Part shown: piece after piece, positions 10,455 to 35,797 of the stretch | Position numbering within the stretch: the stretch's first letter is position 1 | How the letters are laid out: each line of letters starts with the position of its first letter | Source of the DNA: Verrucomicrobiia bacterium | GTDB lineage: Bacteria > Verrucomicrobiota > Verrucomicrobiia > Limisphaerales > UBA1319 | Length of the DNA stretch: 64,000 bases | Direction: 5' to 3' | NCBI GenBank assembly: GCA_963664225.1 | Contig: OY760937.1 | Span: forward strand, 1,728,001 to 1,792,000 | Translations under genes and position numbers: made by a program | Notes under the pieces: generated by a model | Database searches by the model: none | What the model saw: only the letters and a program-made list of their open reading frames with translations | Told to the model about the DNA's origin: nothing

Positions 10455-10638
10455 AAAGACGGAATAAATGGAACTGTCCTGCCGCCTGCAGGCGGCAGGA
10501 CAGTGGCGCGGACGAGCTCGTTTCCTTCTTGCATTGGTTTTTAACCAAATGCGCGAGGAGCCAGAGCCGTTCGTGCCTGTGTCCTAAACTCGAACCGTTG
10601 CTTGAGCGGCCCACCAAGGCCTGCTCGTATTTACAAGA
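10455..10638 (+). ncRNA. Predicted IS110 bridge RNA (ends approximate)
   Basis: 5' hairpin ACTGTCCTGCCGCCTGCAGGCGGCAGGACAGT; target guides TTTCCTTCT and AGGAG; donor guides ACCGTTGCTTG and TACAAG. Confidence 0.8.
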
Positions 10639-11580
10639 ATGAGCCAGAACACTATGACCACTATCTACGCTGGTTTGGATATTGCCAAGCTGAGTCTTGA
10701 TCTCCAACTGGCCGGTCGTTCCCACCATCTGCCCAATACCGCCGCCGGTCATCGCCAGCTCGTCAAACTCCTGGCGCAGCATCCCGGCGCTCACGTCATC
10801 TGTGAAGCCACCGGCGGCTACGAGCGTGAGGTGGCTGACGCCCTCCATCATGCCAGCATTCCTGTCAGCATCATCAATCCCGCCCGCGTCCGGCATTTCG
10901 CCCGCGCCCAGGGACAACGGGCCAAAACCGACCGTATAGATGCCGCCGTCCTCTCCGCCTATGGGCAGGCCTTCGCCCCCAAACCCACGCCCGCGCGTTC
11001 CGAGGTGGAGGAGCAGTTGACCGAACTGGTTCGCCGCCGCACTCAGATCCTTGATCTGCTTATTAGCCAGCGCCATCAGATCGAACGCCTCACGCTGCCC
11101 AAGTTGCGCCGCCAGGCCCAGAGCCTGCTGCGTCGATTGGAACGGGATCTGGAGCATATCGAGACCCAACTCAAAGCGCTGCGCCAGAAAACCACAGAAT
11201 TGGATGAGCGCGCAAAGAAACTCGAGGCTATTACTGGGGTGGGCGCGATTACCGCCTTGGGGGTTTTGGCTGAGCTGCCCGAGTTGGGCACGCTCAATCG
11301 GGGGCAGGCCGCCGCCTTGGCCGGACTGGCTCCACATCCTCGAGAAAGCGGCCAGTGGCAAGGCCGCCGCTCCATCGGTGGCGGAAGAGCCGCCGTTAGA
11401 CGTGCCCTCTACATGGCCGCCCTGGTGGCTGCGCGCTGCAATCGCCAACTCAAGGAGTTCTAGGAACGACTCCGATTGGCGGGCAAGCCCGCCAAAGTCG
11501 CGCTCACCGCCGTCATGCGCAAACTCATTGTCCTGATGAACCAAATCCTTAAAAACCCAGATTTTGCACTCTCAAATTAA
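10639..11580 (+). pseudogene. IS110 transposase with internal nonsense codon
   Basis: GLDIAK, CEATGGYE, AKTDRIDA, RESG motifs; TAG at 11461-11463 in EF*ERL, then frame continues GKPAKVALTAVMRKL to TAA 11580. Confidence 0.88.
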
Positions 11581-32883: not shown

Positions 32884-33417
32884 ATGCACCCCGATTCGCA
32901 CATCCAATGGGATTGGAACCGCGCTGCGTTCATTGCCCTGGGATCGAACGTCGGCGATCGCCCGCGCATTGTCCGGGAGGCGATGAAACAAGTGGCTGCG
33001 CTTTCCAGCGGTCCGGTCAAGTTTTCCTCCCTCTGGATCACCACCCCGGTGGATTGCCCGCCCGGTTCCCCCGCGTTCTTGAATGCTGCGGTGGGGATCA
33101 CGCCAGCCACCGGTCTGGAACCTGAAGAACTCTTGCGCCAGTTGCTCCACCTCGAAAAAGAATGGGGGCGCCAGCCCAAAATCGTCCTCAACGAACCCCG
33201 CCCGCTGGATCTGGACCTCATCGCATTCGGCACATGCGTCCGCCACACGGCGCAATTGACCCTGCCCCATCCGCGTGCCCATCTGCGGCGGTTTGTGCTC
33301 CAACCGCTCAGCGAGATTGCGCCGAATCTTGTTTTGCCGGGGCAAACAAGGACGGTGGTGGAGTTGTTGGGCGAGTTGCCCGTTGATGCGGCCCTGCGGA
33401 AATACTCGGAAGCGTAA
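32884..33417 (+). CDS. folK: 2-amino-4-hydroxy-6-hydroxymethyldihydropteridine diphosphokinase
   Basis: ALGSNVGD, FLNAA, PRPLDLDL, LPHPR...RRFVL.PL. Confidence 0.93.
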   Translation: MHPDSHIQWDWNRAAFIALGSNVGDRPRIVREAMKQVAALSSGPVKFSSLWITTPVDCPPGSPAFLNAAVGITPATGLEPEELLRQLLHLEKEWGRQPKIVLNEPRPLDLDLIAFGTCVRHTAQLTLPHPRAHLRRFVLQPLSEIAPNLVLPGQTRTVVELLGELPVDAALRKYSEA

Positions 33418-33743
33418 AGAGCTGCGACGGGTGCGAGACAGGAATTGTCCGGAAGGAAGGAAGTTTTCTAAACGGACCCCGCTCGTGCCTCGCTGGGCGA
33501 GGAATAAGATTGGCGCGATTAGCGTGTTCGGGGCGCAGGGGTGGTAGTGGACGCGGCGGCGGGTTCCAGCGCCTGCGGATTGGAAATCCGCGATACGGTT
33601 GGAAACCTGCGCTACGGGTCGGCCCGGATCGGTGCGCAGAAGAGTGGCGCGATAAGCGTGTTCGGGGCGCAGGGGTGGTAGTGGAAGCGGTGGCGGGTTC
33701 CAGCGCCTGCGGATTGGAAATCCGCGATACGGCAGCAACGGTG

Positions 33744-34706
33744 TCATGGAGCAACACAGAATCTGGGATCTTTTAGGGCATGATTCATCAATACGATGAG
33801 TTTCCGCATCACTGCTGTCAGCGCCACTTTGGGCTTCTTGCCCGCCGCCCGCAGCCTCTTATAAAAGGCCTTGAGGATGGAATTGCAGCGCACCGCTGCC
33901 ACGGAGGCCATGTAGAGGGCGCGGCGCACCCCGGTCCGGCCGCCACCAATGTGACGCTGGCCTTCCCAAGGGCCGCTCTGGCGCACCCACGGGGCCAGCC
34001 CCGCCAGGGCTGCCGCCTGGCCCCGGTTGAGGGTTCCCAGTTCGGGCATCTGCGCCACTACCGTCACGGCCGTCAGCATCCCCACGCCGGGAATTTCCGC
34101 CAGGCGGGTGACTTGTTTTTGCTCGACGGCGTGGCGGGCCAGGGCGGCGGTTAATTCGGCCAGCACTGCGGCCAAACGGCTTTCCAGATGCCGTATCAGC
34201 TTGGCGTGTTCGGTGCGGACGAAGGGTGAGTCGTGGTGTTCGGCCTGATTTTTGGCGATGGTCAGGAGATCTTTGAGTTGTTCGCGCCAGGTCACCAGGG
34301 CGGTGAGCTCAGTGTGGGCTGGCGTCGGGGCGGTGGTGGCAGCGGGCTCCAGGGCCTTGCCGAAGGCGCTCAGGCTGGCAGCATCGATCGGATCGCTCTT
34401 GGCCCGCTGGCCGGTGGCGCGGGCGAAGGCACGGGTCTGGGCCGGGTTGACCACGCTGACGGGTAAACCGGCCGTGTGAAGTGCCGCCACGACGGCACGC
34501 TCATAGCCGCCAGTGGCTTCGAGGATCACGTGGGCACCGGGCACAGCACCCAGACATTGGACCAGTTGTGTGTGCCCCGCCGCATCGTTGGTCACGTCCA
34601 GGAGCCGTCCGGGAAGGTGAAGTTGGAGAGTGGCCTTGGCGACGTCCAGACCGACATGGACAGGGGCGGATTTTTCAGTCATAATATTAAAGTTGTTCGG
34701 ACTCAT
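33744..34706 (-). CDS. IS110 transposase (DEDD RuvC-like + Tnp20); alternative start 34682
   Basis: GLDVAK, LEATGGYE, AKSDPIDA, RQSG catalytic Ser, GKKPKVALTAVMRKL. Confidence 0.93.
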   Translation of the reverse strand: MSPNNFNIMTEKSAPVHVGLDVAKATLQLHLPGRLLDVTNDAAGHTQLVQCLGAVPGAHVILEATGGYERAVVAALHTAGLPVSVVNPAQTRAFARATGQRAKSDPIDAASLSAFGKALEPAATTAPTPAHTELTALVTWREQLKDLLTIAKNQAEHHDSPFVRTEHAKLIRHLESRLAAVLAELTAALARHAVEQKQVTRLAEIPGVGMLTAVTVVAQMPELGTLNRGQAAALAGLAPWVRQSGPWEGQRHIGGGRTGVRRALYMASVAAVRCNSILKAFYKRLRAAGKKPKVALTAVMRKLIVLMNHALKDPRFCVAP

Positions 34707-34895
34707 TCTTGCAAATACGAGCTGGCGTTGTAACACGCCGCTCTGGTAACGGTTCGAGTTTCGGACAAAGGCGAGCGCGATTCATGCTGCCGTACGGTCT
34801 GGCTTTCACCAGACCAAGATTGGAACGAACACGCGTCCGCCGTCCCTTCCCCGCCTGCAGGCGGGGAAGGGACACCACTTCTTTCTTGTTCAACG
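34707..34895 (-). ncRNA. Predicted IS110 bridge RNA (ends approximate)
   Basis: 5' hairpin GTCCCTTCCCCGCCTGCAGGCGGGGAAGGGAC; target guides TTCCAATCT and TACGGCAG; donor guides ACCGTTAC and TGCAAG. Confidence 0.82.
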
Positions 34896-35119
34896 CGAAC
34901 CAACAAACAAGTGGCAAATTCAAACATACAAGGTTGGAAACCTGCGCTACGGGTCGGCCCGGATCGGTGCGCAGAAGAGTGGCGCGATTAGCGTGTTCGG
35001 GGCGCAGGGGTGGTAGTGGAAGCGGTGGCGGGTTCCAGCGCCTGCGGATTGGAAATCCGCGATACGGGTCGGCAGAAGCCTGATCTTGCAAATGGGCCAT
35101 GATCACCTAGCTTTGGGGG

Positions 35120-35797
35120 ATGGATTTGCCTTGCCAGGTACCGATCATGACACTGCCGGACGCGACCCTCTTTCCAGGGTCGCTTCTGCCGTTGCACATT
35201 TTCGAGCCCCGTTACCGGCGCATGCTCAAGGATGCCCTGGAAACGAGCCGGGTGTTCGCCATTGCCATGCGCAAACCCGGAAGCAAACAGGAAATTCCCC
35301 TTCAGGTGGCCGGTTTGGGCATGATCCGCGTGGCGTTGAAACGGCCGGACGGCACGTCCCATGTCATTTTGCAGGGCCTCTCTCGGGTGGCGCTCATGGG
35401 CGCGGTGCGGCGCAGGCCCTACCGGATTGAATCCGCCATGCCTCTGCTGGCCAAACGGGATACCTTCCCGGATGCGCCCGCATTGACCCGCCAGTTGCGA
35501 AACCTGGTCACCGCGCGTCTGGAACAGGATGAGCCCATGACCAAATACGAACTGCTCAAGCAACTGCCTCCGGAGGCGGTGCCGCACTTCGATGCCATGG
35601 CCGCCTCTTCGCTCAAGCATTTCGTGGAACTCCTGGGCGAGGTCAAGGATCCGGGCCAGGTGGCCGATCTGGTCGGTTGCACCCTGCTGCGCAAAGCCAG
35701 CGAGCGCCAGATCATCCTGGAGACCGTGGAAATCGAGCCCCGCCTGCGCATGGTCATCCGATTTCTGAAGGAGGAAATTCATAGCGAAGGTTTATGA
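35120..35797 (+). CDS. Lon N-terminal (substrate-binding) domain protein
   Basis: LFPGSLLPLHIFEPRYRRM motif. Confidence 0.85.
   Translation: MDLPCQVPIMTLPDATLFPGSLLPLHIFEPRYRRMLKDALETSRVFAIAMRKPGSKQEIPLQVAGLGMIRVALKRPDGTSHVILQGLSRVALMGAVRRRPYRIESAMPLLAKRDTFPDAPALTRQLRNLVTARLEQDEPMTKYELLKQLPPEAVPHFDAMAASSLKHFVELLGEVKDPGQVADLVGCTLLRKASERQIILETVEIEPRLRMVIRFLKEEIHSEGL

Follow-up and report, generated by a model that had tools for sequence, protein, structure and literature searches.

A REP-like hairpin repeat as the target of an IS110-group insertion sequence with a predicted left-end bridge RNA in a Verrucomicrobiia bacterium

The stretch of DNA analysed here, 64,000 nucleotides from a Verrucomicrobiia bacterium (GenBank assembly GCA_963664225.1, contig OY760937.1, positions 1,728,001 to 1,792,000 of the forward strand; hereafter the window, with positions counted from its first letter), carries an insertion sequence on its minus strand at 33734..34932. 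We conclude that this is very likely an intact, recently active element of the IS110 group, of the IS621 type, whose DEDD/Ser recombinase would be guided by a bridge RNA encoded in the non-coding left end. An initial annotation made from the letters alone had proposed an IS110 element with a bridge RNA directed against a host repeat, and the domains, catalytic residues, ends, CT core, left-end fold and guide-flank covariation of the element all support that proposal. The strongest evidence for guide function comes from relatives of the element, in which the candidate guide sequences track the sequences flanking each insertion.

The ends of the element were fixed independently of the guides, by aligning its five genomic copies (c1 to c5) with 120 nt of flank each. 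The host genome is a single contig of 5.78 Mb, and the five copies in it are 99% identical, with at most three substitutions per copy and an intact reading frame in 5/5. Identity among the copies starts at TGTATG (34930) and stops after ACCGTTG (33736), the flanks differ between copies, and CT is present at both junctions in all five. The shared layout is LT-CT-TGTATG ... ACCGTTG-CT-RT, where LT and RT denote the left and right target, the initial 6 nt of the element form the right donor (RD, 34925..34930) and its final 7 nt the left donor (LD, 33736..33742). The left core copy, at the LT-CT-RD junction, lies at 34931..34932 and the right core copy, at the LD-CT-RT junction, at 33734..33735. 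With one core copy the element proper measures 1197 bp, and the span that had been proposed for it, 33734..34932, takes in the element and the core at either side. The left end measures 248 nt (34930-34683), whereas the right end extends only 8 nt past the stop codon of the recombinase gene.

That gene (33744..34682, minus strand) encodes 312 amino acids (aa) from the ATG at 34682 and closes with TGA at 33746-33744; if translation began upstream, at the ATG at 34706, the product would have 320 aa, as the database protein does. Both domains expected of the family scored above their curated cut-offs (PF01548, residues 28-166, E 1.1e-17; PF02371, residues 210-293, E 9.6e-18). Among relatives with solved structures, the closest are the IS621 transposase (8wt6, E 7e-34), which phmmer aligned to query residues 9-303 with 120.8 bits, and then the ISCro4 transposase (9t56, E 8.4e-33). 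In the phmmer alignment to 8wt6_A, whose chain numbering is native plus 2, the query is identical at IS621 D11, E60, D102, D105, S241 and G242, the first five of which are named as catalytic residues by Hiraizumi et al. (2024, PMC11208158). The protein is predicted to be an active recombinase. Its closest database relatives are from Verrucomicrobiota metagenome-assembled genomes (MAGs). The recombinase had been called compact in the initial annotation, but at 312-320 aa it is not distinctive next to the 326 aa of IS621.

The five-copy alignment reconstructs the target of the window copy as TTCCAAC-CT-GCCGTA, and segments of the left end, all read on the minus strand, match this target and the ends of the element. 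The putative left target guide (LTG, 34817..34825), TTCCAATCT or TTCCAAT-CT, has the same sense as LT plus core and would pair with the bottom strand; it agrees with LT and core at 8/9 positions, and a U:G pair with that strand is possible at the remaining one. The putative right target guide (RTG, 34787..34794), TACGGCAG or TACGGC-AG, is the reverse complement of CT-GCCGTA (8/8), and the stem GGTCTGG...CCAGACC (34815-34796) stands between the two. In the candidate left donor guide (LDG, 34746..34753), ACCGTTAC or ACCGTTA-C, the comparison of ACCGTTA-CC with LD and core (ACCGTTG-CT) gives 7/9, while the candidate right donor guide (RDG, 34708..34713), TGCA-AG, would pair with CT-TGTA through one G:T wobble (5/6 plus the wobble, relative to the expected TACAAG); homologues carry either TACAAG or TGCAAG in the same alignment columns. 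In addition, comparison with homologues points to a target-loop handshake guide, CA at 34785..34786, which is complementary to LD positions 7 and 6 (T-G). The target sequence had been read correctly in the initial annotation, and its guide positions were exact (TTCCAATCT at 34825..34817, TACGGCAG at 34794..34787, ACCGTTAC at 34753..34746 and TGCAAG at 34713..34708), as were the 8/9 and exact target matches, the intervening stem and the single wobble. The orientation of the guides agrees with the one published, in which both left guides (LTG and LDG) bind the bottom strand and both right guides (RTG and RDG) the top strand, with the core included in all four (PMC11208160). As a chance control we made 20000 dinucleotide-preserving shuffles of the left end: an 8/9 match to LT arose in 600 and an 8/8 match to RT in 30, and both together, in the right order and within 60 nt, in 0.

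We gathered relatives of the protein from public genomes, aligned 15 of their left ends and built a covariance model on this alignment. Across 32 lineages, the RTG scored 7.16/9 against its own right flank versus 4.66 against the flanks of other lineages (0/20000 permutations), and across 11 lineages the LTG scored 6.73 against its own left flank versus 4.76 for non-cognate flanks (0/20000 permutations). These tests used one representative per distinct loop and dropped rows whose right-end junction agreed with the donor guide at less than 6/7 positions; for the LTG, rows in which the left-junction rule or the loop length failed were dropped as well, which left the 11 lineages. A stricter left-junction rule mislocated L002 and L003 and lost L065, L072, L106, L079 and L089 (guide partly in paired columns). 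Single lineages show the correspondence directly: L032/L033 have LTG GCGTCC-CT and RTG AAGGT-AG between flanks GGCGTCC-CT and CT-ACCTT, L036 has TTGCCCT-CT and TTGGGG-AG between TTGCCCT-CT and CT-CCCCAAG, and L064 has AGCGCA-CT and TCTTGG-AG between CAGCGCA-CT and CT-CCAAAAC. By eye L065 (CGGCG-CT) also fits, and L072 fits at LT only, its RTG agreeing with its own RT at 5/9 positions, which is no fit.

A change of LD position 7 from G to A in L065 and L072 goes with A in the LDG, and four relatives from Alphaproteobacteria MAGs (L079, L089, L090 and L104) have AT in place of the CT core in junctions and guides alike (junctions GGGAT-TGTATG and ACGGTAG-AT, RTG ...CGAT, RDG TACAAT). Pairing in the clade covers the core and RT positions 1-5, in 100, 94, 97, 88 and 69% of lineages, and then falls to background. 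The initial annotation had singled out a long right target guide; it is real, spanning the core plus 6 nt here, but it is a clade-wide property (core plus about 5) and not special to this element. In 33/33 distinct combinations (30 C:G and 3 U:A) the base following the RTG can pair with LD position 7, and the three U:A cases are those in which LD ends in A.

The left end is predicted to fold into two 5' stem-loops followed by two modules, each with an outer stem, a guide-bearing internal loop and an inner hairpin. Its predicted fold had z scores of -6.3 and -5.7, and 0/200 shuffles were as stable. The bridge RNA is placed at 34701..34916 on the minus strand; its 5' end would be set by the junction promoter described below and its 3' end would lie at or past the closing stem of the donor loop. 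Within it, a further stem-loop at about 34874-34915 is followed by a perfect palindrome of 16+16 nt (34842..34873; 100% complementary), folded as 14 bp with a 4-nt loop, which stands directly upstream of the loop that binds the target, and in which 7/7 pairs are compensated (helix 1). An Antizyme_FSE match on this palindrome was rejected as chance level (20.6 bits against a gathering score of 40). The target-binding module (34770..34841; helices 2-5) encloses the inner hairpin 34796-34815, and the donor-binding module (34701..34759; helices 6-7) has the outer stem ACTC (34759-34756) / GAGT (34704-34701) and the inner hairpin 34719-34743.

Covariation among relatives supports this fold. RNAalifold, applied to the MAFFT alignment of the 15 left ends, found compensatory changes in 25/32 pairs. 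The covariance model (R1) matched the window at 34683-34884 with 175.6 bits and gave 64 matches in 69 sources searched, most of them left ends of relatives, including the five copies in the window's genome and a second IS110 family of the same genome. Among 47 distinct sequences aligned to the model, 93.3% of cells were paired and both sides changed in 33/36 pairs, which 0/500 shuffles reached; sliding the partner by 1-3 columns lowered pairing to 30-44%. Folding and covariation with homologues, a check that had been suggested for the bridge RNA, support the prediction.

The target is one position within a hairpin repeat. The left half of the interrupted hairpin, GTAGCGCAG-GT-TTCCAAC, occupies 34933..34951 (LT TTCCAAC at 34939-34933), and the right half, at 33709..33733, consists of RT GCCGTA (33733-33728) and, after it, the doublet's second hairpin, TCGCGGATTTCCAATCCGC. 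Empty sites elsewhere in the genome read GTAGCGCAG-N9-CTGCCGTATCGC, and 29 sites fit GCAG-N9-CTGCYGTNTYGC (GCAG-N9-CTGCYGT); the CT core is found once in the empty target and at both junctions when the target is occupied. In the left flanks, GTAGCGCAG is followed by GTTTCCAAC (c1, c2), ACATCCTGT (c3) or ACTTCCAGT (c4, c5), and the right flanks begin with GCCGTAT, GCCGTAC or GCCGTTT and continue into the second hairpin. All five copies therefore sit at the same position of the same hairpin family, at the CT of its 3' arm, and none at an unrelated sequence, as had been foreseen for a programmed element.

This repeat is an intergenic palindrome with compensated arms, scattered through the genome and with GTAG before it. 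The arm GTAGCGCAG occurs 86 times in the genome, and among the matches listed (80 of 86) most precede hairpins, the stems of which vary with compensatory changes (GCAGGTT-TCC-AACCTGC, GCAGACT-TCC-AGTCTGC, GCAGACA-TCC-TGTCTGC); second hairpins number 49, and the arms are complementary in 75 hairpins that follow the generic pattern. Classical repetitive extragenic palindromic (REP) sequences are defined by linkage to a REP-associated Y1 transposase (RAYT) and a 5' GTAG. The target had been named a REP, and it has the dispersed copies and compensated stems of one; however, the genome contains nine PF01797 (Y1 transposase) genes and none has the repeat within 700 bp, and because no Y1-transposase gene lies near the repeat we call it REP-like, a term that expresses resemblance only.

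At the site of the window copy the repeat is part of a local tandem array with a unit of 134-136 nt in 2.7 copies, two of them 99% alike (33463-33732 and 34932-35067). The unit (136 nt) is found nowhere else in the genome and is not a dispersed repeat; its start is the right half of the hairpin target and its end the left half, and the insertion falls precisely where two units meet. Elsewhere, a left-end relic of 79 nt, 96% identical to the element, lies at G000:C1:3572927-3573005 (+) on the host contig, where it keeps the left half-site GGTTTCCAAC-CT, breaks off within the 14-bp hairpin and is followed by no gene.

Within the genome, occupancy tracks guide match. A 15-mer derived from the guides finds empty sites with 0 mismatches nowhere, with 1 mismatch once, with 2 mismatches 18 times and with 3 mismatches 163 times, and the occupied sites have 1, 1, 2, 2 and 3 mismatches. 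Sorted by LT mismatches, the targets in the repeat are occupied in 4/8 cases with 1 mismatch, 0/7 with 2, 1/13 with 3 and 0/5 with 4, numbers that are small in every class. The left guide is one wobble or one mismatch away from two of the stem variants. At least 12 second hairpins (GCAGATTTCCAATCTGC) match LTG and core perfectly (TTCCAAT-CT-GC) and do not match the RTG, among them those at C1:1962809, 2141829, 2142078, 2332224 and 3670096; none is occupied, from which we conclude that pairing between RT and the right guide matters.

Several observations weigh against guidance by the bridge RNA as we describe it. The lineages compared are related, so that the permutation tests overstate their independence, and the right-end junctions were located using the donor guide. 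The alignment of the 47 sequences was fitted to the model and favours the modelled structure, although the independent MAFFT/RNAalifold result agrees with it, and since a scan of 33000-35600 against Rfam 15 at E <= 1 matched no bridge-RNA family, the class of the RNA rests on the model built in the present analysis. On the donor side, the LDG is mismatched at LD position 7, a position described as mismatch-tolerant (Durrant 2024, PMC11208160), and has CC instead of CT at its core positions. The handshake base of the donor loop agrees in just 15 combinations (+1 wobble) of 28, a set with some parsing errors, and it fits c3-c5 but not c1/c2, nor the LT of the window copy itself. The genome is without a perfectly matching target. 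Copies c4 and c5 have more than 100 nt of right flank in common and may derive from a single insertion, duplicated afterwards. Finally, c3 occupies a hairpin variant, ATCCTGT, with 3/7 LT mismatches, in which the stem is kept by compensation (GCAGACA-TCC-TGTCTGC), and base pairing alone therefore does not account for every insertion.

The c3 insertion, into a site poorly matched at LT that nevertheless preserves the stem, is what one would expect if the target were chosen mainly by a protein or complex that reads the shape of the REP-like stem-loop, with RNA complementarity secondary or used in part. It fits the logic of sequence plus structure reported for ISPpu10, where a target stem-loop involving LT is described as an additional specificity determinant (bioRxiv 10.64898/2026.03.19.712850). 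We consider such a choice by shape quite improbable as the main rule, since guides change together with flanks across the 32 and 11 lineages, whose target sequences are unrelated, and since the second hairpins with a perfect LTG match and no RT match stand empty. Structure would be at most an added layer on guide pairing, as in ISPpu10, and not a replacement for it.

A further alternative sees the element as the decayed remnant of a mobile sequence, its five copies having been spread by segmental duplication or by homologous exchange between repeat arrays and not by transposition. The common right flank of c4 and c5 would suit this, as would the location of every copy in repeat-rich intergenic arrays, with the window copy exactly at the junction of the 134-136 nt tandem units. 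Against it stand the five intact frames, with their few substitutions, and the conserved catalytic residues; moreover, the flanks of c1, c2, c3 and c4/c5 diverge outside a repeat core of about 25 nt, which implies at least four independent insertions, and we regard spread without transposition as very unlikely. An orthologous empty site was sought in 20 relatives through the right flank, and the best matches, even in the same genus, had only 66-76% identity, too distant for an empty-site comparison. Contigs assembled from the DNA runs X1, X3, X4 and X5 over 33300-35400 broke at repeats and gave neither a joint across the element nor an empty site; in X1 and X3 the word depth of the element body was about 4-5 times that of the flanks, a ratio that we do not take as a copy number. 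There is next to no chance that the left end merely captured a fragment of the host repeat and has no guide function: the LTG string TTCCAATCT does occur verbatim in second hairpins of the repeat (GCAGATTTCCAATCTGC), which also read TTTCCAATC, but LTG and RTG lie on the two strands of a conserved internal loop with covarying stems, the RTG is the reverse complement of RT instead of a copy, the same columns hold other strings in relatives from other hosts, each agreeing with the different flanks found there, and 0/20000 left-end shuffles reproduced both target matches.

We therefore retain an active, RNA-guided element as the preferred reading, and its expression may depend on joining of its ends. 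The right end contains a -35-like hexamer, TTGCTC (33749..33754), and the left end a -10-like hexamer, TATGTT (34923..34928), and after circularisation the two are 17 nt apart, which gives a sigma-70-like TTGCTC-17 nt-TATGTT. In the integrated copy, a scan for promoters and terminators detected no promoter on the minus strand. TTGnnn-17-nAnnnT recurs at 14/22 distinct junctions of relatives, with that of the window element included. A candidate promoter formed from the joined ends matches the description of IS621, in which a promoter is reconstituted at the junction of right end (RE) and left end (LE) in the circle (PMC11208160, PMC11208158). Two soil metatranscriptomes contain 6-7% of sampled words.

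The mechanism that we propose is as follows. End joining would assemble the promoter and drive the bridge RNA only from the circle, so that transcription of the non-coding left end would yield an RNA of about 200 nt. In one of its internal loops this RNA would present LTG UUCCAAU-CU and RTG UACGGC-AG to the hairpin target, and the second loop would pair likewise with ACCGTTG-CT-TGTATG, where the two ends meet in the excised circle. Recombination at the common CT core would then place the element within the hairpin's 3' arm, with CT left at both junctions.

On the basis of these comparisons, the view that the element works like IS621 of E. coli is supported, and it has the features of that type that can be tested in sequence, with the donor-loop handshake only in part, as given above. 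As described for IS621 (PMC11208160, PMC11208158, 8wt6), it combines two domains, a DEDD and Ser site, and a predicted RNA in a long left end, with target and donor internal loops, the same orientation of LTG, RTG, LDG and RDG, a CT core that takes part in each of the four pairings, a handshake base following the RTG, a candidate promoter at the RE-LE junction and a protein of similar size. The position of the RNA upstream of the gene, with a long left and a short right end, is that described for the IS110 group, the IS1111 group having the reverse (PMC11208160), and in IS621 the handshake guides after RTG and RDG are described as pairing with position 7 of the other substrate (PMC11208158). 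The two differ in that the proteins are distant, that the target here is a REP-like hairpin in the genome of another phylum, and that two 5' stem-loops, including the perfect 14-bp hairpin, are present here. They also differ in the right guide: in wild-type IS621 it is described as 4 nt including the core, i.e., core plus 2 nt, extendable to 7 (PMC11208160, PMC11208158), whereas here it would pair over the core plus 5-6 nt.

Targeting of REPs by IS110 elements has long been known, according to work cited in PMC11208160 and in the ISPpu10 preprint. ISPpu10 of Pseudomonas putida is described as inserting in REP copies with duplication of CT, and LT there forms the 3' arm of a stem-loop, with the 5' arm immediately upstream and a stem kept by compensatory changes, all of which we find here (bioRxiv 10.64898/2026.03.19.712850). 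The host phylum and the target sequence are different, and gating by the stem-loop was demonstrated experimentally for ISPpu10, whereas here it is suggested only by the c3 insertion. ISPpu9 of P. putida KT2440 is likewise an IS110-family element with several copies in REP sequences, but in most of them a small RNA gene is described downstream of the transposase (PMC12288879), while here the RNA would lie upstream and only 8 nt follow the stop codon. ISCro4 (PDB 9t56) is a relative by sequence match.

The second family of the IS110 group in the same genome lies in the window at 10462-10662 (+), with its gene downstream, and at further loci (L006, L008, L009, L010). It has about 70% nucleotide identity over part of the gene, and its candidate bridge RNA scores 145 bits with the covariance model. 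Two versions of its guides occur. The first has LTG TTTCCTT-CT and RTG GAGG-AG, with flanks ..CTCCTT-CT / CT-CCTGGGG or ..TCCTTC-CT / CT-CCTCCCC, and the second has LTG CCATTCC-CT and RTG TCGGG-AG, with flanks ..GTTCC-CT / CT-CCCTGCA and ..GCTCC-CT / CT-CCCCGCT. The targets of this family are not REP, its guide matches are looser, and its joined ends are without a TTG -35 at 17 nt.

Some copies of the hairpin repeat have an altered core. Among the matches listed (80 of 86), at least four copies, of two stem subtypes (GGTTTCCAAC and GACTTCCAGT), are without exactly CTGC (or TGCC), the four bases that bear the core, so that the full hairpin and the CT core are no longer possible. They lie in the window at about 33590-33612, at the unit junction adjoining the element, and at G000:C1 216039, 1918062 and 2199802; another, different 4-nt loss is found at G000:C1 2568774. 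A further copy, at G000:C1 about 4456886-4456924 (-), reads GTAGCGCAG-ACACCGTTG-CT-GCCGTATCGCGG, its LT being replaced by the last 10 nt of the element, and a diverged second case lies at 3481325 (+). This scar fits a deletion between the GACA of a left flank of the GCAGACATCC type and the GACA in CCATGACACCGTTG, and it looks like loss of the element through microhomology and not like precise excision. It is tempting to speculate that the hairpin repeats record both activity of, and resistance to, the bridge recombinase, which, together with the near match of the left guide to two stem variants, would be an arms race that pits a guide RNA against structured repeats; we think this rather unlikely. 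The CTGC-less and scar alleles would then be abortive or imprecise products of the recombinase at its natural target, or core-less alleles selected as uninvadable.

Altogether, the element is a well-supported but ordinary example of a mechanism described in 2024, and it leaves the understanding of that mechanism unchanged. The covariance-model matches (64 in 69 sources) could seed a description of the RNA family, which has no counterpart in Rfam 15. What the element adds is a cleanly mapped natural bridge-RNA system, with its parts placed to the base, five insertions and, in the same genome, 29 empty target sites whose agreement with the guides ranges from good to poor. To tool builders it offers a right guide that covers the core plus 5-6 nt throughout the clade, compared with core plus 2 in IS621, and a left half-site set within a stem-loop, two features each of which is described as tied experimentally to specificity in other IS110 elements.

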